DNA from: an uncultured Akkermansia sp.
GTDB taxonomy: Bacteria > Verrucomicrobiota > Verrucomicrobiia > Verrucomicrobiales > DEV007
Direction: 5' to 3'
DNA length: 64,000 bases
NCBI GenBank assembly: GCA_964552315.1
Contig: CAZKGI010000017.1
Coordinates: forward strand, 732 to 64,731
The notes beneath the pieces were generated by a model. That model saw only the letters and a list, made by a program, of their open reading frames with translations, was not told the origin of the DNA and made no database searches. The position numbers and the translations under genes are program-made. Shown piece by piece: positions 13,979-26,637 of this stretch. Each line of letters begins with the position of its first letter. The stretch's first letter is position 1.

Positions 13979-14803
13979 TCAATGGCCCTTTTCGCTGGCC
14001 TTGACCCGGTTCCAGGCCGCGTCCATTTCCTCCAGGCTGGCCTCCGCGACAGAGCGGCCGCCCTGGGCCAGCGCGTCCTCGACCGCCTGAAAGCGGCGCA
14101 CGAATTTCCGGTTGGCGGCGTCGAGGAGAAGCTCGGCCTCGTGCCCGCTTTTTCGCGCCAGGTTCACCACGGCGAAGAGCAGGTCGCCAATTTCTTCTCC
14201 GAGTCGCTCTGTGCTTCCCTCGGAGAGGGCGGCCTCGACTTCGTCCACCTCCTCGCGCACCTTGGCCAGCACTTCCCGGGCCTCCGACCAGTCGAAGCCG
14301 ACCGAGGCGGCCTTGCGCTGGAGCTTGGCCGCCGCGAGCAGGGCGGGTTGTCCTTCGTTGGCCTTTTTCAGCAGGTAGTCCCGGTCCGCCGGAGGGGCCG
14401 CGCCCCCTGTAGCCTCTTCCTTCTCCCTGGCCTTGATGGTCTCCCATTGGCTGAGGACGGCATCCGCGCTGTCGGCCACGGCGTCGCCGAAGACGTGGGG
14501 ATGACGCCGCACCAGTTTCTCGCAGATGGCACGGGCGACCTCGTCGATGTCGAAGTGACCCGCCTCGGCGGCGATGGCCGCGTGGAAAAAGGGCTGGAGC
14601 AGCAGATCGCCCAGCTCGTCGACGAGCGCCGCGCGATCGCCGGAACGGACGGCGGCGCCGACTTCGTAGGCCTCCTCGATGGCGTGGCGGACGAGGCTTT
14701 CATGGGTTTGTTCGGCATCCCAAGGACATCCGCCGGGCGCCCTGAGCGTGTGCATGATCTGGCGGAGACGTTCGAGCGGGGGCAGGTCGGGAGAAGGGAT
14801 CAT
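13979..14803 (-). CDS. mazG: Nucleoside triphosphate pyrophosphohydrolase MazG
   Basis: LRAPGGCPWDAEQTHESL, EEAYEV, DELGDLL, KLVRRHPHVF, and second-domain EEVDEV..EEIGDLLFAVVN. Confidence 0.95.
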   Translation of the reverse strand: MIPSPDLPPLERLRQIMHTLRAPGGCPWDAEQTHESLVRHAIEEAYEVGAAVRSGDRAALVDELGDLLLQPFFHAAIAAEAGHFDIDEVARAICEKLVRRHPHVFGDAVADSADAVLSQWETIKAREKEEATGGAAPPADRDYLLKKANEGQPALLAAAKLQRKAASVGFDWSEAREVLAKVREEVDEVEAALSEGSTERLGEEIGDLLFAVVNLARKSGHEAELLLDAANRKFVRRFQAVEDALAQGGRSVAEASLEEMDAAWNRVKASEKGH

Positions 14804-14881
14804 GGGCGAGTCGTCAGGGAGGGGAGAAAAGGAAAGGACAAGCGCCGGAAAAGCTGTGCTTTAATACGCACAACTTCCCCC

Positions 14882-15622
14882 ATGGCCAAACATCGATTTT
14901 ACCTCTCCGTCGATCAGTGGAATCCGGAATGTCTTCTCCTCGAGGGCGAGGAGGCGCATCACTGTGTCAGCGTGATGCGCTGTCGGGTGGGGGAGCGCGT
15001 CCTGCTTTTCAACGGACGGGGGGGCATGGCCGAGGCGGAAATCGTGGAGCTGGGTCGGGATCGGGTTCGCCTGGAGGCGGTGCAGAGCGTCGCGAGTCCG
15101 GCTCCCGCGGTGTCCCTGACCCTGGCCCAGGCGGTACCCAAGGGGAAGAACATGGACCTCATCGTGCAGAAGGCCACCGAACTGGGCGCCACCCGGATCG
15201 TTCCCTTGCTGACGGAGCGGAGTGTCGTGCACCTGGAAGCGGGGGAGCTCGGGAAAAAGCAGCAGAAATGGCAGCGGGTCGCCATCGAAGCCTGCAAGCA
15301 ATGCGGCCAGAATTGGCTGCCGGAAGTCGTCCGACCCATTCGCTTGGGGGACTACCTGGAGGCGGAGTCCGCCCCCCTGCGGCTGGTGGCGGCCCTGAAC
15401 GCGGCCACGCGTCCGCTCAAGGCGATCCTTTCCTCGTTCGAGCAGCTCCCCAGGGAGGCCAGCGTGCTGATCGGTCCCGAGGGCGACTTCACCGAGGCGG
15501 AGGTGGCCCTGGCCCAGGCCCGCGGATTTCTGCCGCTTTCGCTCGGCGATCTCGTTCTGAGGAGTGAAACGGCGGCGATCTACAGCCTCAGCATCCTGGG
15601 GCACGAGCTCAACGCGCGGTGA
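14882..15622 (+). CDS. rsmE: 16S rRNA m3U1498 methyltransferase
   Basis: HHCVSVMRC, KGKNMDLIVQKATELGA, EACKQCG, IGPEGDF and LRSETA motifs; ATG at 14882. Confidence 0.95.
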   Translation: MAKHRFYLSVDQWNPECLLLEGEEAHHCVSVMRCRVGERVLLFNGRGGMAEAEIVELGRDRVRLEAVQSVASPAPAVSLTLAQAVPKGKNMDLIVQKATELGATRIVPLLTERSVVHLEAGELGKKQQKWQRVAIEACKQCGQNWLPEVVRPIRLGDYLEAESAPLRLVAALNAATRPLKAILSSFEQLPREASVLIGPEGDFTEAEVALAQARGFLPLSLGDLVLRSETAAIYSLSILGHELNAR

Positions 15623-15682
15623 GCGCGGTGTGCGCGCCGGGATCCCCGGGGAGGGGGGGGCGCTCTGAGGGTGCCGGACTTG

Positions 15683-16645
15683 TCAGTAACTGACCGTTAC
15701 CGGGGTGCCGAGGCCCACCTTGGAATAAATGAGCGGCTGAACGGAGGCGGGGACGCGGATGCAGCCATGGCTGGCCGGATAGCCGGGCACCTCGCCAATG
15801 TGCAGGCCGATGCCGCCGCGGATGCGCATCCAGTAGGGCATGTCGGCACCGACAAAGCGGCTGGCTCCGGGGGGGCGTCGATCGCTTTCCCCACTGCTGG
15901 GGATAGGGGCTCCGTTGGCATCGAGCCAGGTCCCGTAGAGCGTGGATTGCTTTTCCACCAACTTCTCACTGATGGTGAAACTGCCCGTGGGGGTTTCATG
16001 TCCCGGCTTGCCGCTGGAAATGGGCGTGTCGATGACCAGGGCCTTGACGGGGCCGTCCTTGCGGTAGACCCGGGCGCGCTGTTCCCCCAGGGTGATTTCG
16101 ATCCGGGCGTTGGCGGGCGTGAGCGAGGGGAGGAGCTCTTGATTGACGAAGATGTCGTGTTCTCCCTGAGGCTGGCGACGGGAGAGCTTGCCCAGGCCCA
16201 GACCGGCAAACCAGCCGCCGGTGTTGCGCCCGGAGGCATTGGCGGATTCCCTCTCGCTCCCCCCTTCGGGAGGCAGGGGGCGGGAGGCCGCCAACTTCGC
16301 TTCCAGCTTGGCCTGGCGTTTCGCTTCGCGCTTCCGCTCCTTTTCGGCGATGGCCTCCACGCGGGCCATCAGGTCCGCTTCTTCAGGAGTCAGGGACTGT
16401 CCGTGGCGTTGGCGCGCGGCGCGCTCCGCGGCTTCGCGGGCCTTGGCGTCGGCTTCGGCCACCGCGGCCCGGGCTTCGGCACGACGGCGCTTGGCCTCGG
16501 CCTTGTTTTCGACCTTGCTTTCACCCTCCGCGCTGGCGACCGCGCGGAAGGGGCCGCCGCGGAACATGCTGGCAGGACGCTCCACCCCGCAGGAGGTGAG
16601 CAAGAACACGAGAGGCAGGGCGCGCAGGAGAAGGCGAAACGTCAT
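15683..16645 (-). CDS. L,D-transpeptidase (YkuD) family lipoprotein
   Basis: Lipobox LTS-C; A/E/K/R-rich coiled coil; TPTGSF, MPYWMR and catalytic LHIG..PGYPASHGCIR. Confidence 0.88.
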   Translation of the reverse strand: MTFRLLLRALPLVFLLTSCGVERPASMFRGGPFRAVASAEGESKVENKAEAKRRRAEARAAVAEADAKAREAAERAARQRHGQSLTPEEADLMARVEAIAEKERKREAKRQAKLEAKLAASRPLPPEGGSERESANASGRNTGGWFAGLGLGKLSRRQPQGEHDIFVNQELLPSLTPANARIEITLGEQRARVYRKDGPVKALVIDTPISSGKPGHETPTGSFTISEKLVEKQSTLYGTWLDANGAPIPSSGESDRRPPGASRFVGADMPYWMRIRGGIGLHIGEVPGYPASHGCIRVPASVQPLIYSKVGLGTPVTVSY

Positions 16646-16791
16646 GACGGGATCCGACGACGAAAGGGACCGCAGAGACATGGCTTCCCGGAAGGGGAAC
16701 GTCAACCGCATAATCGTGGCCAGCCCACCAGCGGCCGGGCCCGAGGGGCGGGAAGCGGGGCCGCGCGCGGCGAAAGGCGGCCTGGCGAGCC

Positions 16792-17562
16792 TCAGTTGGC
16801 GATGTAGAGGTCTCCCATCGGGAAGATGCCGGAACCCATTTTGGGCGAGGCATTCCGGGTGATGGGCTCGAATTCGGCCGGACGGATCTGGAAGGGGATG
16901 GAGGTCACCTCCTGCGTTTCCATGTCCTTGAAGTAGAGCTCGCCCTTGTGGACGCCCTCGAAGCGGAGACGGATGGTGAGGTCTTGGTGCTTCAGGCCGA
17001 ATTCTCCGCCGACACCGAAGGTTCTCGCTCCGAGAACAATTTGCTGCTTCTGCGGATAGATCCCGGTGATGGGGAGGGCTTGCAGGGCGGTTTTGAGAGA
17101 GGAGACGCTCAGGGCCTGGGGTTCTTCCTCGGTATGAAGTTCTGCGAAGGGAGGCGCCACGGAGGCGTTGGCGGGATCCATGACCAGGCCGAAGGGGTCC
17201 ATCTCGCGCGTGTTTTCGAGAAGCTTGGAGAGAATCCGATGGGAGCGCTGCAGCGGATCGAGCGACTTGGCGTCCGACTTTTCGGGGGCAGGCGGAGAGG
17301 CCAGCGAATCCGTGGGGGCAGGCGGGGGCAGCTGGGCGGGGCCGGCCACCGCCAAGGCTTCCGCCTGGGTCGCCGGGGCTTCAGGAGTGTTCTGCGACAT
17401 GGCCGCCGTCATCGCCTCTGCGGGCGTGTTGGGGGTGGCATTTGCTCCCGGGGACTGGGGCTGCAGCGATCCGGAAACGATCGAGGGGGTGGATTCCTCC
17501 TGGGCGCGGGCGGCGCTGGCCAGGGACATCAGGAGCATCGCAATGGGGAGAAGAGTCTTCAT
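16792..17562 (-). CDS. Exported hypothetical protein, PilP/GspC-like
   Basis: Sec signal peptide (..AARA|QEE), long P/A-rich linker and a C-terminal beta domain (LPITGIYPQKQQIVLGARTFGVGGEF); last gene of the pilus-like operon. The family call is an inference. Confidence 0.55.
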   Translation of the reverse strand: MKTLLPIAMLLMSLASAARAQEESTPSIVSGSLQPQSPGANATPNTPAEAMTAAMSQNTPEAPATQAEALAVAGPAQLPPPAPTDSLASPPAPEKSDAKSLDPLQRSHRILSKLLENTREMDPFGLVMDPANASVAPPFAELHTEEEPQALSVSSLKTALQALPITGIYPQKQQIVLGARTFGVGGEFGLKHQDLTIRLRFEGVHKGELYFKDMETQEVTSIPFQIRPAEFEPITRNASPKMGSGIFPMGDLYIAN

Positions 17563-18143
17563 TTCTTGGGTCCCGCGGTCGTTCCGGCCATTTCCCAGCA
17601 ATGGTAGACGAGACTAAACTGGAGCGTGCGGCTCTCGTTGTCCGAAGAGGCCTTGGGGGCGACTTGGATGCTTTCGAGCACGAGCTGGGGCATCTCCGCC
17701 TCCAGTTCGGCGAGAAGGAGCTGCATGGGCTTGAAGCCGCCCTCAAAGCGGAGCTGCATTTTCGAATAGGGATGTTCCGTCTTGGCGCCCAGGCCGCCAT
17801 TGCCGGGCAGTCGTCCCATTTCCGTTTGGCGAAGGGTTTCCGGTTCGTGCTTGGCGAGGATCTTGTCGAGCGTTTCGGAAAGCGACTCGACGACATCCTT
17901 CCCGAGCTTCTCGTTCCAGTGGGTGGCCTGCTCGCGGCGCCCATTGGCGGTGAGGAAGGCATCCAATTCCGCGACCTGGGATTTGGCCCGGTTGTAGCGC
18001 TCCAGGTCCGCCAACTTCTTCTCGTGGTTTTCCTTGAGCTTCGAATGGCCGAAGTAAGTCAGGCCGACGACGAGCCCGAGGAGGGCAAAGGGGATGACGA
18101 TCCCAAAGACGACAATGGCTTGGCGATGGGGCGAGGTCGTCAT
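17559..18143 (-). CDS. Bitopic membrane protein, PilO/GspM-like
   Basis: N-terminal TM helix, coiled coil, then LRFEGGFKPMQLLLAELEAEMPQLVLESIQV (ferredoxin-like PilO pattern); 4-nt overlaps with both neighbours. Confidence 0.6.
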   Translation of the reverse strand: MTTSPHRQAIVVFGIVIPFALLGLVVGLTYFGHSKLKENHEKKLADLERYNRAKSQVAELDAFLTANGRREQATHWNEKLGKDVVESLSETLDKILAKHEPETLRQTEMGRLPGNGGLGAKTEHPYSKMQLRFEGGFKPMQLLLAELEAEMPQLVLESIQVAPKASSDNESRTLQFSLVYHCWEMAGTTAGPKK

Positions 18144-19978
18144 TCTGGCTTGAGAGGCTTGAGATTGAGCGCGAGATCATCCTTGCCGTTGAGGCTCTGG
18201 AGGATGGAGAGATCGAAGGCAATGCGGAAGTGCCGGGCCACCTTGGCCGGGAAGTGGTTGGAGGGGGGCATGGTGCCTTGCTTCTGCTGCAGGGTGACCT
18301 GAAGGTCCCGGGTGTCGGCGTCGACGGACAGGTAGGGGGCGTAGTTGCGCTCCGCGATGCCGTTGAGGAGTTCGGAGACCCGGGCGCGGCTGCCCAGGGT
18401 GGAGAGATTCGAGGCCAGCTCGGGATTGGCGAATCCGGAGAGGGTCCACTGCCGGGTGATGCCCGCGGTGGTGTCCTTGCTGTTGCTGGTGATATCCGTT
18501 CGGTAGCTGGCGTCCTTGAGGATGACCCCGCCGTTTTCGGGGAAGATCTCAAGGAGGGCCTGCAGGGCCAGCCAGCCTTCGGAGCGCTTGGCGAGGAGAT
18601 TGTTCCAATGCTCCCATTCGCGCTTCTCCTTCTGCAGCTTCATGAACTCCGCCTCCTTGGTCTCGGCGGCATCCTTGGGCAGGGCCCAGACTTCGGAGCG
18701 CATTTTGCTGAGGAAGTCCATGCCGATCCAGCCGGCGTAGGCGAGGAGCCCGACGGTCGCGACCTTGAGGGCGAGGCCCCCAAACTTGAGCAAGCGGAGG
18801 TCGCCGCAGCTCGGCATGCGCGCGGCCTCTTCCTGGGAGGGGCCGTAGAAATCCTGCCAGGTCCACTTTTCGCGGAAGGCCTTCCGCTGGGGGGATTCGT
18901 CGAGGCCGGGGGGCGCCTCGCAAACGGCCGCGGCCATCTCCAGGCAGCCTTCGGGTACCTTGGCGACGAATTCGTGCCGTCGGACATCCAGGCAATAGGT
19001 GCGGGCCTGGGGATATTGCTCCTGATAGGACTCCAGCAGGGCCTGAAGTTCGGCTTCGCTCAGACCCACCAGCGAGGCGAGGATGATGGCGGGATCCTTG
19101 ATGTTGAGCAAGGCCGCCGTTTGGGAAATCACTTCGTGCACTTCCGCCGGGCTGAGATGCGGGGCGCCGCGGTGAAAGAGCGGACGAACCAGGAGCAGCT
19201 CCGATCGAGACCCCTGGGCAAAGAGCAGGGTCATGGTCTCGTACTGCAGCAGGGCAATGCTGGGCCCCTGATCGGGCGCCAGCAAGGCCGGGTGCACATG
19301 GCTCAGGGCCGAGAGGGCCTCGAGGGGTGCACAGCGGGTTTCGACCAAGACAGGTTGATTGCTGCGCTCGCCATAGCGACGCAATTCCTGGGCGAGGAGT
19401 TTGAGCTTCGATGGAATCTGGACGGCGAAGGAGCGGCGTTCGCCCTCGTTGACGCCGACCAGGGGAACGAGGCGCCACATTCCTTCCTGGCTGTCGAGGG
19501 TGTCGTCTCCGATGGCCACTTCCGGTGCAGTGATGAGCAGCTCGTTGAGCGTGTCGAAATCTGCATCCGCGGCAAAGTCCGGGGCGAGGTTTCGCACGCG
19601 CATCCCCTCGGCGAGGTGGATGACGATGCCGAGGGATCGCGAGACTTTCCCGCCGCCGAATTCCTTGTTGGCGAACAGGCTCTGGAGGGTCTCGTGAAGG
19701 GCCTGTTGGGAGCCCTCGCTGAGACGGGGACCTTCGCCTTCCTCGCCGGGCTCAAAGGAGAGGGGAGGCAGGTCGGGACCCTCCCACCAGAGCTTCAGCT
19801 GGCGGTTGTAAATGGCGCTGACTCCGGTGTGGGCGCCGATCCAGAGATGCCATTGCAGGTTCAGCTCGTGGGCGCGGCGATACCAGTCCGGTTCCTTGGC
19901 CCGGCTGGTGCTGCGGAGGATCCGCTTGGCTTGCCGATGCAGTTGCAGGGGGGACGCGCTGGCGGGTAAAAGGTCCAT
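18140..19978 (-). CDS. Bitopic protein, putative PilM+PilN (GspL-like) fusion
   Basis: About 400-aa soluble N-terminal region, one TM helix (LALKVATVGLLAYAGWIG), coiled coil, then LQALLEIFPENGGVILKDASY...WTLSGFA (PilN-like). Confidence 0.55.
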   Translation of the reverse strand: MDLLPASASPLQLHRQAKRILRSTSRAKEPDWYRRAHELNLQWHLWIGAHTGVSAIYNRQLKLWWEGPDLPPLSFEPGEEGEGPRLSEGSQQALHETLQSLFANKEFGGGKVSRSLGIVIHLAEGMRVRNLAPDFAADADFDTLNELLITAPEVAIGDDTLDSQEGMWRLVPLVGVNEGERRSFAVQIPSKLKLLAQELRRYGERSNQPVLVETRCAPLEALSALSHVHPALLAPDQGPSIALLQYETMTLLFAQGSRSELLLVRPLFHRGAPHLSPAEVHEVISQTAALLNIKDPAIILASLVGLSEAELQALLESYQEQYPQARTYCLDVRRHEFVAKVPEGCLEMAAAVCEAPPGLDESPQRKAFREKWTWQDFYGPSQEEAARMPSCGDLRLLKFGGLALKVATVGLLAYAGWIGMDFLSKMRSEVWALPKDAAETKEAEFMKLQKEKREWEHWNNLLAKRSEGWLALQALLEIFPENGGVILKDASYRTDITSNSKDTTAGITRQWTLSGFANPELASNLSTLGSRARVSELLNGIAERNYAPYLSVDADTRDLQVTLQQKQGTMPPSNHFPAKVARHFRIAFDLSILQSLNGKDDLALNLKPLKPE

Positions 19979-20076
19979 GCGAGGAAGCGGTGGAGGGGGG
20001 CGCGGAGGCTTCGTTGCCCGGAGGAAAGGCAGGTTGGGAAACTGCCCTTGCTTCGAACCCGAAGGGGGGAGGAGGA

Positions 20077-20109
20077 GACCCCGGGAACTCGTGCGGAGTT
20101 CCCGGGGTC
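20077..20109. repeat. Perfect 14-bp inverted repeat downstream of the pilin gene
   Basis: GACCCCGGGAACTC-gtgcg-GAGTTCCCGGGGTC; no U-tract. Confidence 0.85.
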
Positions 20110-20151
20110 GCTGATGAGTTGGTTCCGGTTAAACGATGAGGAATCGATCGA

Positions 20152-20544
20152 TTACCAGCCGTCGGTGCTGTTGGGAGCGTGGTCGTTGGCATCTGCCAGG
20201 GAGCAGGTCAGGTAGGGCGTGCCAATTTCGGTCACGACAGCCGAGGGAGAATATTCGCCGCCGCTGGGGCAGTCGGGCATGGCTTCCAGGAGCTTGCCGG
20301 TGCCCACGAAGGTCTCGTCAGCGACGAGGGCGTCACCCTGCTTGAGTTCATAAAGGTTTTGGTAGGAGCGGGCCGCCTTCTGGACGTTGGTGATGTTCAG
20401 AATGCACTTGGCGCGGTTCGAGCCTTCACGGTAGGCGGAGACCCCGATGAAGAGCACGCTGATGAGGCCGAGAAGCACGGCGATCACGAGCGTGATTTCG
20501 ATGAGGGTCAGACCAGCTTGCTTTTGGATGCGGTTCAGTTTCAT
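20152..20544 (-). CDS. Type IV pilin / prepilin-type N-methylation domain protein
   Basis: Class III signal KQAG|LTLIE with Glu+5 and a hydrophobic helix; Cys residues including CPSGGEY. Confidence 0.9.
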   Translation of the reverse strand: MKLNRIQKQAGLTLIEITLVIAVLLGLISVLFIGVSAYREGSNRAKCILNITNVQKAARSYQNLYELKQGDALVADETFVGTGKLLEAMPDCPSGGEYSPSAVVTEIGTPYLTCSLADANDHAPNSTDGW

Positions 20545-20616
20545 GGTTTCGTCTATTATCTATTTATGGTTTGTTGTGGTTTCCCGTCGGCCGATGAAGG
20601 GACCGGCGAAAAGGGT

Positions 20617-21831
20617 TCAGCCCGCCTTGCTGCGGAGGAAGAGCAATTCTTCGCCCTCCTCTTCGTTCATGCGGTTCATGAGGTAGGCGGATCGCGGGAT
20701 CCGGCCGCTCTGGAGTAGAGTCATCAGGTTCTTGTCCCAGGCGATGTTGCCGCTGTGGCGGATGGCATCCTCGAGGGACTTCGCCGCGCCGTCGTAGGAG
20801 GCGATGCCCGAGCGGACGGCGGAGCTGTTGTTCTGCAAATATTCGTAGTTGAGCACGCGGCCGTTCTCCGTGGGGATGAGCCCCTGAGAAAGGATGAACA
20901 TGAGGATCTCGGAGAGTCGGCCCAGCACGGAGCGGTGTTGCTCTTGGGGAAAGAATTCCAGGATCCGGCCCAGGGTCTTGACCGCCCCGTTGGTGTGCAG
21001 GGTGGAAATGACGACGTGACCGGTTTGCGCCGCCTCCAGGGCAATCTCCATGGTTTCGCGGTCGCGGATTTCCCCGATGAGAATGACGTGGGGGGCCTTG
21101 CGGAGCGCGTCCTTGAGACCCTGCTTGTAGGTGGCCACGTGCTTGCCGACTTCTTGTTGCGTGCAGAAGCCCGGCGAGGGGATGGGCCGCCCGTTTTCGT
21201 CCGGGACGGGGAGGAAGCGGGAATAGCGATACTCGATGGGATCCTCGACCGTGACGATGTGGCGGGGATGGTTCTTCCGCAGCCAGTCGAGCACGGCAGC
21301 GAGGGTGGTCGACTTGCCCGAGCCGGTCTGGCCGGTGACCAGGCCGAAACCCTGCCGTCGAGTCATGAACTCGCAGATGGACCGGACCGTGTCCGAGGAG
21401 AGGCCGAGGCCGTTCAGGTCGGCGATCTCGTCGCTGAGGATCCGGCAGGTCAGGCCGGGACCCGACGTGCTGAGGTGCGCCTGCACCCGCATCCGTCCCG
21501 AAACCGTGCCATCGGCCAGGGGGAAGCCCTCGGTGCTGAAGTCGGCGACTTGGTCCTCGAGGAGGCGGGCCTTGACGTCGCGCTGGCTGGTCAGCTTGGG
21601 GGCGGCACTCGCCGATTCGGGTTCCTGCCGCTCGTAAAGATACTCGACCACGTTCAGGACCATCTCGGCGGGGAGCTCACCCAGTCGGGTGATGATCTCG
21701 AGCCCGCGTTTGGTGTGGCAGTAGACCCAGTTCCCGCTCCGAATCTGGATATCGGAGATGTGATTGCCCCCGGCCACGGCGAAGATCTCGCTCATGATGT
21801 GGTGGGCTTGGGCTCTGGCGTGAGGGTCCAT
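20617..21831 (-). CDS. pilT: PilT/PilU-family secretion ATPase
   Basis: Walker A GQTGSGKST, Asp box EDPIEY, Walker B ILIGEIRD, His box TGHVVISTLHT; no PilB-type tetracysteine motif. Confidence 0.85.
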   Translation of the reverse strand: MDPHARAQAHHIMSEIFAVAGGNHISDIQIRSGNWVYCHTKRGLEIITRLGELPAEMVLNVVEYLYERQEPESASAAPKLTSQRDVKARLLEDQVADFSTEGFPLADGTVSGRMRVQAHLSTSGPGLTCRILSDEIADLNGLGLSSDTVRSICEFMTRRQGFGLVTGQTGSGKSTTLAAVLDWLRKNHPRHIVTVEDPIEYRYSRFLPVPDENGRPIPSPGFCTQQEVGKHVATYKQGLKDALRKAPHVILIGEIRDRETMEIALEAAQTGHVVISTLHTNGAVKTLGRILEFFPQEQHRSVLGRLSEILMFILSQGLIPTENGRVLNYEYLQNNSSAVRSGIASYDGAAKSLEDAIRHSGNIAWDKNLMTLLQSGRIPRSAYLMNRMNEEEGEELLFLRSKAG

Positions 21832-21855
21832 ACAGGATGGGCGAGGGACGGCGGG

Positions 21856-21930
21856 ATATTAATTCCATAATTTTCATATATCAATCAAAAATTTATAATT
21901 TATTCGAATTATCTGTAAATTTTATAATTT
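21856..21930 (-). promoter_or_regulatory. Sigma70-like promoter of the pilus-like operon with upstream A/T repeats
   Basis: Minus strand TTGATA (21884-21879)-N17-TAATAT (21861-21856); TTTATAATTT repeated at 21892-21901 and 21921-21930. Confidence 0.6.
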
Positions 21931-22062
21931 CGAGATGTTTCTAACCGGGCAGATCGCCTGATTCCAAGGACGCTGATCCCACCTGGCGAATTTTGACCGT
22001 AAGGGAATTGCAGAAAATTTGAGAAGAATGGCCGAAATCGGGCCCTTCAGGGGCGGAGCGGC

Positions 22063-23967
22063 TTACCAGCCTCCGCCCCCGCCTCCGCCGCCGCCCCCGC
22101 CAGAGGAGCCGCCTCCGGAACTGCTGTCGAGCGAGGGGGGAGGCGCAGCTGCTTCGCTGAGCGCGCTGGAGAAAGAGGCCCCGAGATCCTGCCAGGAATG
22201 GCGAAGGGAGTTTCCTCCCTCCACATAGCGGGGATAGGGGGAGAAGGAGGCCTCGGTAACGTCGTTGGCCGGCGCTTGGCTGGCGCGGAGATGGCGGTGA
22301 AACTTCTCCGACCAGGCCTGTTCCAGGTCCAAGGCCAGGGCGTAGGGAAAAAGGCGTTCGAAACGCTCAGGGCTCATCTCGGGCGGATGCTCCGCATTGA
22401 GCCGGTCCTCTTCGGCCACTTGCAGGTATTCGGCGAATCCCTCCAGTTCATCGAGGAGGGCGCGCCCCCGCGGACTGGGGGCTTCCATCCATCGGAGAAA
22501 GAGCCAGGCGAAGAGCCCGATGCCGGCGATGACCAGGCCCGCGAGAGCCCCGGCTTCATGAGACAATTGCCAAATGCCAATCCCGTAGGTGAGGAGTCCG
22601 AGGCCGGTCATCCCGAGGCCCAAGAGCCGTCCCTTCCACTGCCGTGAGGGATGTCGCCTCCAGACCCAAAGGCCCACGGCGCTGAGCACCCAAGTCAGGA
22701 CGATCCAGATTCCCCAGCCCTTGATGGTTTCCGGATTTCCCTGTCCCAGGGCCAGGCGAAGCCCTCCCGCTCCCGCGATGAGCAGTCCGAAGAACCAAAC
22801 GCCCCAGTTGCGGGAAAGCAGCCGGCCCTCCACCTGACTGGAGAGGCTGAGGATGCAACGGCGCTTGGCTTCCGCGAGGGTGGCTTGTTCATCGGGATGG
22901 ACCCGCAGCGTGGTCCTGTGTCCGAGCAGGCTCTGATAGAGGAGGGACTCGCCCTCGTCCAAGGCAGCTTGACGTCCCGTCGTGCGATGGATTTCGTAGG
23001 GGCCGTCCTTGGACGAGACGGGAGCCGTGATCTTCAGCCAACCCTTGGCGGCGAGCCCCAGAATGGCCGCGGTAAAGCAGAGTTCGTCGTAAGCCCGTCG
23101 ATAGAGATAGCGGGCGAGTCCGGGGGAGACGCCCTCGGGAGGTTCCCACCGGGGGATGATCAATCCCCGGGGCGGATCCTTGCCGACGCGCCGCCACGAC
23201 CAGATCCACCACACCAGGCCCAGCAGGGTGAGAAGCCCTCCCTGCCAGTAAGCGCCCTGCCGCCACCAAGCGGGACGGTGGGCGGCCTCCGGAGAGAGCC
23301 AGCCCAGGGGCCAGTGGAGCAGGAGGGTCAGGCCCTCTCCCGGGAGGAGGGTGGCCGTGCTGCGAAAGTGGTGGTCCTCGTCCCCCGTGGCACCCCCTCG
23401 GCTTTCGTACAGATAGGCCTGTCCGGTGGCCCCGACCGGACCGGTGTAGGCCTCCGTTCGGATCGGCTTGGCCCCGCGGGGCAGGCGGACCGTGGCCTCG
23501 GCCTGATCGATGGGGAAATCCCACTCGTTCCCCGTGACGTTCCAGTAGAGGACGTCGCTCTTCTCCGTCCGGAGCAACTGCCCGCCCGTGCGGTAAGTGA
23601 TTTGATAGACTTGTCGTGAAGGGCTGGGCAGAAAACGGCCTTCTCGGCCGATCCAGATGCGGGTGCCGTGGCGTGTGGCTTCGGTCCGGAAGGGCTCCCG
23701 TTCCCCATTGCGAGTGACTTGGTCCACGAGGAGGGGACGCCGTTCCCGCGTTCCCCAACGACCGGCGTAGCGATGCGGGATGTCCCGATAGATGCCCTGA
23801 CGGATGCGCTGGCCTTCCACCTGCACGGTGATGCTTTCCCGGATCTCGAGCCAACCGTCAGGCTTCACCTCGATCTCGCTGTGAAAACCGAGGATGCGCT
23901 CGTCGGCCAGCAGCTCCGCAGCCGAGAGAACGCACAGGATGAGGGCGAGGAGGCCGCGGCGTTTCAT
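22063..23967 (-). CDS. DUF2207 domain membrane protein
   Basis: Signal peptide, GIYRDIP, LYWNVTGNEWDFPI, several TM helices, FERLFPYALALDL and a C-terminal SGGGSSGGGGGGGGGGGW. Confidence 0.9.
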   Translation of the reverse strand: MKRRGLLALILCVLSAAELLADERILGFHSEIEVKPDGWLEIRESITVQVEGQRIRQGIYRDIPHRYAGRWGTRERRPLLVDQVTRNGEREPFRTEATRHGTRIWIGREGRFLPSPSRQVYQITYRTGGQLLRTEKSDVLYWNVTGNEWDFPIDQAEATVRLPRGAKPIRTEAYTGPVGATGQAYLYESRGGATGDEDHHFRSTATLLPGEGLTLLLHWPLGWLSPEAAHRPAWWRQGAYWQGGLLTLLGLVWWIWSWRRVGKDPPRGLIIPRWEPPEGVSPGLARYLYRRAYDELCFTAAILGLAAKGWLKITAPVSSKDGPYEIHRTTGRQAALDEGESLLYQSLLGHRTTLRVHPDEQATLAEAKRRCILSLSSQVEGRLLSRNWGVWFFGLLIAGAGGLRLALGQGNPETIKGWGIWIVLTWVLSAVGLWVWRRHPSRQWKGRLLGLGMTGLGLLTYGIGIWQLSHEAGALAGLVIAGIGLFAWLFLRWMEAPSPRGRALLDELEGFAEYLQVAEEDRLNAEHPPEMSPERFERLFPYALALDLEQAWSEKFHRHLRASQAPANDVTEASFSPYPRYVEGGNSLRHSWQDLGASFSSALSEAAAPPPSLDSSSGGGSSGGGGGGGGGGGW

Positions 23968-24533
23968 GGGCGGATCTGGGGGGGATGCCGTTCCGAGACC
24001 TCGGCGATCTCAAAGAAATCACCCTGACGAAACCCCAGAAAGCGCCCGACCCAGTTGGACGGAAAACTCTCCAGGGCATTGTTCAGTTCCCGCACCGCGC
24101 CGTTGTAATAGCGACGGGCAAACTGGATGGCGTCCTCTACCTCCACCAGTTCGTCCATGAGGCGACGGTAGTGGGCGTCTGCCTTCAACTCCGGCCACTG
24201 CTCGACGACGGCGCGCAGCTGGGTCAGCTCCGCCCCGAGGCGGGATTCCACTGACGAGCAGGTCTTGGGTTCCTGCGGTAGGAGCGCCTCCCGGCGAGCG
24301 TCCGCGAGTCGTTCCAGCAGGGCCTTTTCGTGTCGTGCATAGGCCTGCACGGTCGTCAGGAGGGCGGGAATGAGATCGTGTCGGCGCTTCAACTGCACGT
24401 CCACCCCGCTCCAGCCTTCGCGCATGCGGTTGCGCGCCTTCACCAGGCGATTGTGGATCACCACCACCATCCCGGTCAGGGAGATCGCTAGCAGCAGGGT
24501 CCCGATCAAGCTCGCCGACATGCCGCGGAGCAT
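23964..24533 (-). CDS. lemA: LemA family protein
   Basis: N-terminal TM helix; WSGVDVQLKRRHDLIP, PELKAD, ARRYYNGAVRELN and FPSNWV; ATGA overlap with DUF2207. Confidence 0.93.
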   Translation of the reverse strand: MLRGMSASLIGTLLLAISLTGMVVVIHNRLVKARNRMREGWSGVDVQLKRRHDLIPALLTTVQAYARHEKALLERLADARREALLPQEPKTCSSVESRLGAELTQLRAVVEQWPELKADAHYRRLMDELVEVEDAIQFARRYYNGAVRELNNALESFPSNWVGRFLGFRQGDFFEIAEVSERHPPQIRP

Positions 24534-24579
24534 AGCATGGCGCCCCTTACCTGTAGAGGGAAATGCCAGCGAGCGGGGC

Positions 24580-26637
24580 TCAGAAGCGGAAGCTCAGGCC
24601 GCCGCCGATGCCGTGGTCGGAATGGTATTCCGATATGAGCGAGAAACGTTTGTTGAGGAGATACTCCGCGCCCGCGGACCATTCCCATTCGGTGTTGGTG
24701 TCGTACTCGATCTCGGCGAAAACGGAGATCCGGTCCGTCAGTCGCAGTGACTTGCCGAGGCCCAGGCGGAAATCGCCCTCGCTGTCCACTTGGAGAAAAC
24801 TCTCGATGAGGTAGGGGAGCCGGTATTCGATCCCCCCGAAGGCGCGGTCGGTAGCGTGAGGTTCGTTGGTGAGGCGGGCCCCCAGCACCGTGGAGAAATT
24901 GGGATTGAAGTAGCGGCTCCAGGCGAGGTCAATTTCGTAGTGGGCCGAGTCGAGATCGAAGTCGTGCCAGCCGATGTCCCACATGGCGTAGTAGTCGTTG
25001 CGGGTGTTCATGAGGCTGGCCATGCCCATGCTCATGTGGGTTTGCAGGGAGCCGGCGGCCATGAAGTAGAAGGGGTCTGCATCGTGCTCTCCGAAATCGA
25101 CGCGGTGATCCTCCCCCTGTTCCTCGTAGGAGAAGACCCGGGTCATGCCCATGTGCATGTGATAGAGCAGGTGACAGTGAAAGAGCCAGTCGCCGCTCTC
25201 GTTGGCCTCGAACTCGACGCTGCGCTTGCCCATGGGCGGGAGATCGACGGTGTGCTTGAGCGGGGCGTCGGGGAGCTCCCGCGAGTCGAGCACGCGGAAG
25301 AAGTGGCCGTGAAGATGCAGGGGATGGTGCATCATGGTGTCGTTGATCAGCTCGAGGCGGAGCACCTCCCCGCGCCGCACGCGGATGACGCCGTCCTCGG
25401 CCAGGGTCTTGCCGTTGAAGGACCAGATGTAGCGCTCCATGTCCCCGGTGAGGCGGAGCTCGATGGTGCGACGCGGCAGGGCGGGGTTGAGCCGGGTCTC
25501 CGAGACGGCGCGCAGGCGGGCATAGGGTGGCAGGGGCCGTTCCGGCTCGGTGGCGAGGGCCTCGGCATCACTAGACGGGATGTCCACCTCGTCGTCCTCC
25601 AGGGCGGCGAGGAGGTGGTCGTCCATGTTGTAGACATTGGGCCGAGGGATGTCCGGGGCGCGGTGGACCTCGCCCTGACCCAGCCAGATCGAGGCCTGCC
25701 CCGAGCCGTCCTGGGCAGTGGCCCGCAGTTCCCATCGCCCGTGCTTGGGAACGGTGAGGAGAACATCGTAGGTCTCGGCCATGCCGACGAGAAGCCGATT
25801 CACCTGGATGGGTTTCACCGCGGGGCCGTCGGCGGCCACAATGCGCAGGGGGCCGGTGGCGGACTGCAGGTAGAAATAGGTCGAGGCGGCCGCATTGATG
25901 AAGCGCAGCCGGACCGTCTCTCCATTGCGAATGCCCGGATCGTGCTCGCGCCTGCCGTTGGCGAGGAAGGCGTCGTAGGCCACGTCGGAAATGTCCATGG
26001 CCGGCATGCGGGAGCGCTCGCGCTCCCAGAAGGATTTCCATTCGCCAGCCTCGATGGCTCCCCAAAGGCTTTGGATGGAGCCCTTTTTGAACTCATACCA
26101 GTCATTGCCGCTCATCAGGGTGCGCATCACTTCCTCGGGGCGCTCCAGGGTCCAGTCCGAGAGGACGATCACCTCGTCGCGATCGGGGCGCTCCTTCTCG
26201 CCGTCCCGGGGTTCGACGACGATGGACCCATAGACGCCGTTTTGCTCCTGGAGGCCGGTGTGGCTGTGATACCAGTAGGTCCCGGCGTGGCGCAGCTGGA
26301 ATTGGAAGGTGTGGGTCGTTCCCGGTCGGATCGGCGGGGTGGTGACGTGCGGGACCCCGTCCTCCGCATTGGGAACGAGGAGCCCGTGCCAGTGGATCGA
26401 AGTTTCCTCCTTGCGCAGCTGGTTGTGCACCCGGATGCGCACGGTTTCTCCCTCGCGGAAGCGCAGGGTGGGGCCGGGAATCCCCCCGTTGACGGTCAGG
26501 GCCCGGACGGGCCGCAGGCTTTCGTCGGGCGTCCACTTCGTTTCGGCAATGACCAAGTCGTATTCCCGGTCAGCGGGGCCCTTCGGGGCGGGGCTGAGTC
26601 CGCAGGCGAGACAGAGAAAGGGAATCAGGGCGTTCAT
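24580..26637 (-). CDS. Multicopper oxidase with C-terminal CopB-like beta-barrel
   Basis: Cu ligand motifs HWHG, WYHSH, HPLHLHGH and HCHLLYHM; C-terminal about 160 aa of alternating beta strands ending in Phe. Confidence 0.9.
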   Translation of the reverse strand: MNALIPFLCLACGLSPAPKGPADREYDLVIAETKWTPDESLRPVRALTVNGGIPGPTLRFREGETVRIRVHNQLRKEETSIHWHGLLVPNAEDGVPHVTTPPIRPGTTHTFQFQLRHAGTYWYHSHTGLQEQNGVYGSIVVEPRDGEKERPDRDEVIVLSDWTLERPEEVMRTLMSGNDWYEFKKGSIQSLWGAIEAGEWKSFWERERSRMPAMDISDVAYDAFLANGRREHDPGIRNGETVRLRFINAAASTYFYLQSATGPLRIVAADGPAVKPIQVNRLLVGMAETYDVLLTVPKHGRWELRATAQDGSGQASIWLGQGEVHRAPDIPRPNVYNMDDHLLAALEDDEVDIPSSDAEALATEPERPLPPYARLRAVSETRLNPALPRRTIELRLTGDMERYIWSFNGKTLAEDGVIRVRRGEVLRLELINDTMMHHPLHLHGHFFRVLDSRELPDAPLKHTVDLPPMGKRSVEFEANESGDWLFHCHLLYHMHMGMTRVFSYEEQGEDHRVDFGEHDADPFYFMAAGSLQTHMSMGMASLMNTRNDYYAMWDIGWHDFDLDSAHYEIDLAWSRYFNPNFSTVLGARLTNEPHATDRAFGGIEYRLPYLIESFLQVDSEGDFRLGLGKSLRLTDRISVFAEIEYDTNTEWEWSAGAEYLLNKRFSLISEYHSDHGIGGGLSFRF

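Follow-up and report, generated by a model that had tools for sequence, protein, structure and literature searches.

Do the five co-directional genes on the minus strand of a 64,000-nucleotide stretch of DNA from an uncultured bacterium of the Verrucomicrobiales (deposited as Akkermansia sp., assembly GCA_964552315.1, contig CAZKGI010000017.1, hereafter C17; the whole stretch analysed is referred to as the window) encode a compact type IV filament machine, or are they one part of a larger one? As delimited by a listing of open reading frames (ORFs), these genes specify a PilT-family ATPase, a type IV pilin and three hypothetical proteins of 612, 194 and 256 aa, here termed L, M and P (Table 1). 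The reading favoured here, to which a probability of about 0.78 is given, takes the locus for the promoter-proximal transcription unit of a type IVa pilus (T4aP)-like machine conserved across the Verrucomicrobiales. An earlier note on this DNA had described a promoter followed by five co-directional genes, the last three with 4-nt overlaps, which the ORF listing and the conservation of the promoter bear out. The same note had taken the locus for a compact machine, which does not hold, as these genes stand at the head of a single contiguous cluster wherever a relative has sufficient flanking sequence.

In relatives represented by TARA and Logan contigs, the five genes are directly followed by those for a secretin, a 224-aa protein (g224), a 562-aa ATPase with MshEN and T2SSE domains (E) and a GspF/PilC-type platform protein (F), after which come two small genes, the latter for a pilin. 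Among the scanned species genomes of GTDB, all of the roughly 25 loci whose flanks were long enough have an identical order of 19 genes. This order begins with two exported proteins, three pilin-like proteins, the ATPase and the ABC-2 permease of an ATP-binding cassette (ABC) transporter and a 325-aa protein, and continues with the PilT-like ATPase, the pilin (one to four copies), L, M, P, the secretin, g224, E, F, a small gene (x) and a pilin. The core order, together with the attached ABC genes, is kept in four further families of Verrucomicrobiales; the same gene order is found in about 30 related loci and across five families, and the arrangement of the locus is thus more than chance.

The homologues of L fall into 69 clusters, all annotated as "hypothetical" and all from Verrucomicrobiales. 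The L family occurs in 115 of the 301 sampled genomes of this order (19 of the 57 genera, five families), while the order and phylum samples contain no member in the listed genomes of genus g2, which are small (about 2-3 Mb) and probably of Akkermansia. The locus had been thought to be a divergent variant of the Planctomycetes-Verrucomicrobia-Chlamydiae (PVC) lineage, with synteny to be sought across PVC genomes. Its divergence stands, as no Pfam model matches L or P, while a PVC-wide spread does not, as the L family has members only in the Verrucomicrobiales among the 401 genomes of the phylum sample.

In the present genome this cluster of about 19 genes, normally contiguous, appears to have been broken by rearrangements into four intact pieces (C17, C54, C27 and C74; Table 1). 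Compared with the TARA relative, the orthologues on C54 are 73% (secretin), 73% (g224), 86% (E), 75% (F) and, for the two small genes, 54% and 58% identical, those on C74 51-65% and those on C27 44-76%, all detached ORFs on C54, C74 and C27 being intact and containing no stops. The C54 ATPase contains an MshEN domain (36.6 bits, above the cut-off) and scores 310 bits with PilB versus 284 bits with GspE, while the published 24-residue cyclic di-GMP-binding MshEN motif was not recognised in it by eye. The GspF and PilC scores of the C54 platform are almost tied, and the C54 secretin reaches 119 bits with MshL (cut-off 250), which ranks under PilQ and GspD. The pilin-like proteins of C74 and C54 have the leaders G/FTLVE, G/SALVE and G/FSLVE (the slash marks the predicted cleavage site), and one without E5, G/YATLV.

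An artefact of assembly or binning was considered for the split and is rejected for the two main pieces, each of which has its junction context repeated in assemblies of independent origin: LemA, DUF2207, ATPase, pilin, L, M, P and YkuD stand together in at least five independent Logan assemblies and the context of C54 is found in at least four, run SRR23593172 holding both, while the C27 and C74 pieces are known from this assembly alone. The 3' flank of the C54 piece (a glycerol-3-phosphate dehydrogenase-like gene and GntR) is the ancestral one, and thus the five-gene unit is the part that moved.

PilB/GspE, PilC/GspF, secretin and prepilin peptidase, which the earlier note had reported as missing, were likewise not seen in the examined parts of the window (the ORFs of 14000-25000 were read and the remainder listed by coordinates). 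The genome matches to these four families are all on other contigs, except for the PilT-like ATPase of the locus itself. A machine running on this single ATPase, or borrowing core parts in trans, had been proposed to account for their absence and is rejected, as a dedicated secretin, extension ATPase and platform are intact on C54.

Five genes displaced in this way may of course be a stranded remnant, which has lost stoichiometric co-expression and builds no working machine, or whose pilin and ATPase serve another filament system. The cluster is contiguous in every examined relative and split here, and the genome, which contains ten T2SSE-family ATPase matches including that of the locus, has nine other such ATPases, six platform genes and six secretins that could take over; by these counts it appears to encode several further type IV filament systems. 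A remnant is nevertheless highly improbable, as the five ORFs and their detached partners are intact, the window proteins retain the family-invariant residues, the conserved promoter and leader have been carried along, and L, M and P have no detectably similar paralogue in the genome. Moreover, an identical 612-aa L is found on 22 contigs from many samples in the same context, which argues for a successful population in which this arrangement is stably kept.

The first gene of the unit encodes a protein matching PF00437 (3e-45), the best NCBIfam model of which is TIGR01420 (pilT_fam; 238 bits against a cut-off of 319, and over model positions 77-337 only), followed by the TraJ model (168 bits), while its N-terminal region of about 110 aa fits TraJ/DotB-type models better. 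The nearest solved structures are PilT (5fl3, 155 bits), then PilU, DotB and GspE, in agreement with the PilT-like ATPase named in the earlier note. The Walker A (GQTGSGKST), Walker B (ILIGEIRD) and His box (TLHTN) motifs are readable, and the protein, 72-87% identical among relatives, is invariably encoded by the first gene of the five-gene unit. Its translation probably starts at 21795 (392 aa, MSEIF...), the start found in relatives and by gene callers, rather than at 21831, that of the longest ORF. This ATPase is provisionally identified as a hexameric motor of the PilT family with a putative function in retraction.

The 130-aa product of the second gene carries the motifs of a type IV pilin, as a class III leader with Gly-1 and Glu+5 and a predicted cleavage site (MKLNRIQKQAG/LTLIEITLVIAVLLGL) can be read directly from the sequence. 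The N-terminus (KQAG/LTLIEITLVIAVLLGL) is almost invariant across 25 relatives, while the hidden Markov models (HMMs) for the prepilin cleavage and N-methylation domain (TIGR02532/PF07963) give weak scores slightly under their cut-offs (13.5 versus 16.3 bits and 14.2 versus 21.2 bits). This protein is probably the major subunit. Its gene is present in one to four tandem copies in relatives, with amplification to three or four diverged copies at L038:7641-9800, L042:8301-9808 and L061/L062:8412-9950. The present genome has a single copy in the window and a paralogue, 37% identical, on C83.

Protein L was modelled with AlphaFold2 from 25 homologues, with a predicted local distance difference test score (pLDDT) of 84. 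The model comprises a PilM-like actin-fold domain (residues ~1-380), a transmembrane (TM) helix (~396-420), a coiled coil (437-476) and a C-terminal domain with two alpha-beta-beta repeats (467-596). Against the PDB, Foldseek places the actin-like domain closest to 3hrg and then to the PilM structures 5eox, 5eou, 2ych and 3jc8_M (E values of 3e-10 to 2e-7; 2e-9 to 2e-7 for the PilM structures alone), its neighbours being BT_3980 and then PilM of P. aeruginosa, T. thermophilus and M. xanthus, while no GspL structure is among the top 50 fold matches. By sequence, neither L nor any of 24 homologues matches a pilus family of Pfam or NCBIfam, the PilM HMMs PF11104 and TIGR01175 included, a sequence and profile search of the PDB with L gave no match, and the GspL models PF05134 (T2SSL) and PF12693 (GspL_C) find nothing in L. 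In the model, L thus has the PilM plus PilN, or GspL, architecture, with cytoplasmic, TM and periplasmic parts fused into one chain, and it may work like PilM plus PilN, yet is not a member of the PilM family by sequence.

Protein M has an N-terminal TM helix, a coiled coil and a C-terminal alpha/beta domain, and matches PF10741 (T2SSM_b) with 25.6 bits, above the gathering score of 21.7, as do all members of its family (22 of 22). It also matches NF040576 (GspM_XpsM) at 2e-9, with 37 bits versus an equivalog cut-off of 60. Since the family threshold is passed, M is assigned by sequence as a bitopic protein of the GspM/PilO type.

Protein P has a predicted cleavable signal peptide without a lipobox Cys, followed by a Pro/Ala-rich disordered linker of about 80 aa, a conserved R..DPFG..MDP motif, the R..DPFG part of which is invariant in the family, and a small beta domain, as judged from 24 + 6 aligned homologues. 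From one profile of the family P0182 (458 aa) was left out, in which a catalase-peroxidase fragment is joined to a P-family domain; this protein is probably the product of a chimeric call and brings in spurious catalase matches. AlphaFold2 models the beta domain (150-225) with a pLDDT above 90 and the remainder as disordered. Foldseek gives this domain no significant match to known folds, PilP (2y4y_B) appearing only at rank 23 (TM-score of 0.52 over 72 of 76 residues, non-significant E value of 0.73). No Pfam model matches the P family, neither Pfam nor the PDB sequences link it to PilP (PF04351) or GspC, no PDZ or other GspC family matches P, a PDB search with a 48-sequence profile gave no match, and a profile search of 1.84 billion proteins yielded 397 representatives, none of which bridges to PilP or GspC. 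In relatives, the GspM-like and secretin genes invariably flank the P gene. PilP and GspC proteins typically combine a lipoprotein or TM anchor with a disordered linker and a beta-sandwich HR domain, which binds N0 of the secretin. From its position, its topology and a non-significant fold match, P is a candidate PilP/GspC-like connector to the secretin. The topologies of PilM plus PilN, PilO and PilP assigned to these three proteins in the earlier note are accordingly upheld for L by its predicted fold and for M by PF10741, while that of P is left with the three indications just named, its predicted fold giving no significant match.

The L and M genes (18140-18143) and the M and P genes (17559-17562) overlap by 4 nt of the ATGA type, and the same gene boundaries and overlaps are called independently in other assemblies. 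Upstream of the ATPase gene, an AT-rich spacer (21796-22062; 268 nt) contains two minus-strand sigma-70-like sites by consensus scan, one of which is kept as TTGAT...ATTATGGAATTAATAT upstream of the orthologous ATPase gene in an alignment with L032, L033, L034 and L037. The 5' leader (21796-21855) is conserved too, about 140 nt before the start codon being alike in relatives, while beyond the promoter and leader the upstream sequence of the window is unrelated to theirs. The native promoter appears, from this alignment, to have travelled along with the five-gene unit.

The spacer between the pilin and L genes (19979-20151) has a predicted RNA fold with z = -2.9, in which a hairpin lies directly 3' of the pilin gene. 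Hairpins of 12-17 bp, of other sequence but in the same place, are found in 15 of 15 relatives with a readable spacer, that of a sixteenth, L057, being masked by Ns. The hairpin in the window (20077-20109) has no clear U-tract and may be a partial terminator or an mRNA-stabilising stem; its place suggests attenuation or stabilisation that sets the ratio of pilin to machine.

In the T4aP-like machine proposed here, the 130-aa major pilin would be processed by the single prepilin peptidase of the genome (on C18) and assembled by the PilB/GspE-like ATPase into an extending filament, with the minor pilins priming, while the PilT-family ATPase would depolymerise this filament and so retract it. L and M would form an inner-membrane alignment ring, in which L would engage the motors and platform through its cytoplasmic actin-like domain and M through its periplasmic one, and P would tie this ring to the secretin via its flexible linker. 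The scattered pieces on C17, C54, C27 and C74 would operate in trans with dedicated parts. Such protein-protein contacts, the retraction and a role in adhesion, twitching, DNA uptake or secretion are suggested by analogy.

The closest counterpart of this arrangement is the T4aP of P. aeruginosa, M. xanthus and T. thermophilus, which likewise have a PilT-family ATPase, a PilM-like actin fold, bitopic N/O-type proteins, a periplasmic connector (in the present cluster a candidate one) and a secretin in the order M-N-O-P-Q, a separate PilB-like motor and PilC-like platform, and minor pilins including one without Glu5. In contrast to these systems, where PilM is a separate cytoplasmic protein binding the N-terminus of PilN, PilM and PilN are here a single polypeptide, the PilM, PilN, PilO and PilP HMMs detect none of the present proteins, the protein in the O position fits GspM models, the connector lacks a lipobox, the PilT, PilB, PilC and PilQ scores are far under the family cut-offs, and the conserved g224 separates the secretin from the extension ATPase.

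Several points weigh against a T4aP-like machine. No component reaches the NCBIfam equivalog or subfamily cut-offs of PilT, PilB, PilC, PilQ, GspD, GspE, GspF, GspM or MshL, and any subtype is thus tentative. The GspM-type match and the fused L point to a type II secretion system (T2SS) over a T4aP, a PilP role of P is without statistical support, and a working machine after the break-up of the cluster is presumed from the intact ORFs only. The periplasmic domain of L, furthermore, has no profile similarity to the M family by hhalign, and its origin as a paralogue of that family was rejected for this reason.

A T2SS variant would have L as GspL, M as GspM and P standing in for GspC, with a short GspG-like pseudopilus pushing folded proteins through the secretin and the PilT-like ATPase in an accessory or regulatory function. 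The GspL-GspM-GspC assembly does share with the present proteins the fused actin-like, TM and periplasmic ferredoxin-like architecture of L, the GspM matches of M (22 of 22 with T2SSM_b, and GspM/XpsM at 2e-9) and a protein in the place of the secretin-binding connector. The small pilin, one large pilin-like protein without Glu5, like GspK, and the close scores of the C54 ATPase (GspE and PilB) and platform (GspF and PilC) are also in line with it. Against this, in families f1, f2 and f75 the unit opens with the gene for a dedicated PilT-family ATPase, which is also its best-conserved member and presumably co-transcribed with the others, while canonical T2SS are not known to have a retraction ATPase. 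PF05134 matches nothing anywhere in the genome, the cytoplasmic fold of L is that of PilM rather than of GspL structures, P is no PDZ-type GspC, the GspD, GspE, GspF and GspM equivalog cut-offs are unreached, and the two to four tandem pilin copies of some relatives are more typical of surface pili. A T2SS is therefore improbable, and a T4aP-like machine is preferred.

The Amuc_1098-Amuc_1102 genes of Akkermansia muciniphila form a 'pili-like' cluster (PMC5332112) from the same phylum, which shares the local succession of a pilin-like protein, a TM-containing PilM-like protein (about 600 aa), two exported or anchored proteins and a secretin. The present genome contains on C16 a complete Amuc_1102/1101/1100/1099/1098 cluster, with an Amuc_1101-family PilM-like protein of 579 aa (604 bits) and an Amuc_1098 secretin (990 bits); in a six-frame scan of the genome, the sole match of PF11104 is this Amuc_1101-like gene. 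Neither sequence nor profile comparison detects any likeness of L, M and P to the Amuc_1101-, 1100- and 1099-like proteins of this genome, none of the Amuc_1101_fam, 1100_fam and 1099_fam models matches them, and homology to these proteins was rejected for want of detectable similarity. The C54 secretin reaches 68 bits with Amuc_1098_fam, versus a cut-off of 750, and, unlike the Amuc cluster, the present system has its own PilT, PilB/GspE and PilC/GspF. On these comparisons it is regarded as a second system, paralogous to the Amuc-type cluster and restricted to the Verrucomicrobiales.

The mannose-sensitive haemagglutinin (MSHA) pilus locus (mshIJKL-MN-EG-F-BACD) resembles the present cluster in the succession of an I-like protein (PilM/N-type), a J-like protein, a K-like protein, a secretin, a spacer gene, an ATPase with an MshEN N-domain, a platform and pilins, and MSH loci lack their own prepilin peptidase (PMC6668835), as does the present cluster. 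The two differ in that g224 is no MshM/MshN-type protein, with no AAA or TPR match, in that a PilT-like gene lies inside the present cluster, and in that the secretin is far below the MshL cut-off. Denise et al. list 884 'generic' systems fitting no type, and their main text does not mention Verrucomicrobia (PMC6668835); the present system may be one of these. A literature search found no paper describing this cluster and, for surface machines of Verrucomicrobiales, no study beyond that of the Akkermansia Amuc_1100 cluster; the earlier description of the locus as an undescribed divergent variant of type IV filaments appears fair.

A further step would be to regard the cluster as a distinct Verrucomicrobiales-specific lineage of the type IV filament superfamily, which would branch outside T4aP, T2SS and MSH in phylogenies of the ATPase, platform and secretin and merit a type of its own. 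Its members would be retractile pili having a PilT of their own, an alignment complex of a GspL-like PilM-N fusion and a connector, both orphans by sequence, a GspM-type partner, a new cytoplasmic protein (g224) translationally coupled to the extension ATPase and an obligatorily linked ABC transporter, but such a status is doubtful at present. Of these components, g224 has a disordered N-terminus followed by a soluble domain of about 180 aa, matches no Pfam or NCBIfam model, is always encoded directly after the secretin and ahead of the extension ATPase, and shares 4 nt with the start of the ATPase gene. A function as a new cofactor of this motor is possible.

All five families have the ABC ATPase, ABC-2-type permease and 325-aa protein in linkage with the pilus cluster, upstream of it in three families with examined loci and downstream in one. 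The pilGHI genes of M. xanthus are a precedent for an ABC transporter inside a pilus cluster.

Soil, freshwater and marine habitats harbour Verrucomicrobiales in abundance, and many members of the order carry this second, complete and probably retractile pilus system. Current HMM libraries do not detect its scaffold proteins, which are hence annotated as "hypothetical", and system finders likely miss the machine or call it "generic". The 612-aa and 256-aa families and the 19-gene neighbourhood provide concrete annotation profiles, as well as targets for genetics in culturable carriers. The machine appears to tolerate being encoded in four separate places, while its architecture, which recombines known themes of T4aP and T2SS, reveals no new principle.

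Table 1. Coordinates of the five-gene unit, its control elements, the detached cluster pieces and further features (positions without a prefix are those of the window)
Feature	Position	Strand	Description
ATPase gene	20617-21795 (longest ORF to 21831; 404 aa)	-	392 aa, PilT-family
Pilin gene	20152-20544	-	130 aa, type IV (pseudo)pilin
L gene	18140-19978	-	612 aa, bitopic inner-membrane protein
M gene	17559-18143	-	194 aa, GspM/PilO-like, bitopic, translationally coupled to L gene
P gene	16792-17562 from ATG (longest ORF to 17601)	-	256 aa, predicted exported
Promoter-like site TTGATA-N17-TAATAT	21884-21856	-	consensus scan and conservation in relatives
GC-rich hairpin, 14-bp stem	20077-20109	-	directly 3' of pilin gene; RNA fold
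Piece on C17	this window		ATPase, pilin, L, M, P
Piece on C54			secretin, g224, E, F, 146-aa membrane protein without pilin leader, second pilin
Piece on C27			ABC-transporter genes
Piece on C74			three pilin-like (minor pilin) proteins and two exported proteins
g224	L028:8449-9123 (own C54); relatives e.g. L025:15394-16068	-	
ABC-transporter genes	L025:5341-7798 (relative); C27:35474-38163 (L030, own genome)		linked to pilus cluster
Amuc_1102/1101/1100/1099/1098 cluster	L083:4986-12243 (C16)	+	complete 'pili-like' cluster
YkuD gene	15683-16711	-	L,D-transpeptidase
RsmE-like gene	13982-15622	+	PUA_4 / Methyltrans_RNA

Directly downstream of the five-gene unit, the window encodes an L,D-transpeptidase of the YkuD type with a long low-complexity linker rich in Lys, Ala, Glu and Arg. 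The TARA relative (L025) also has a YkuD gene close to where its cluster ends, with no similarity between the two at E <= 1e-8 when the first part of the gene is compared. The neighbouring RsmE-like gene is called differently by gene callers (546 aa versus 246 aa); its long frame, which runs antisense through a MazG gene, has probably been over-extended owing to the high GC content of the DNA.

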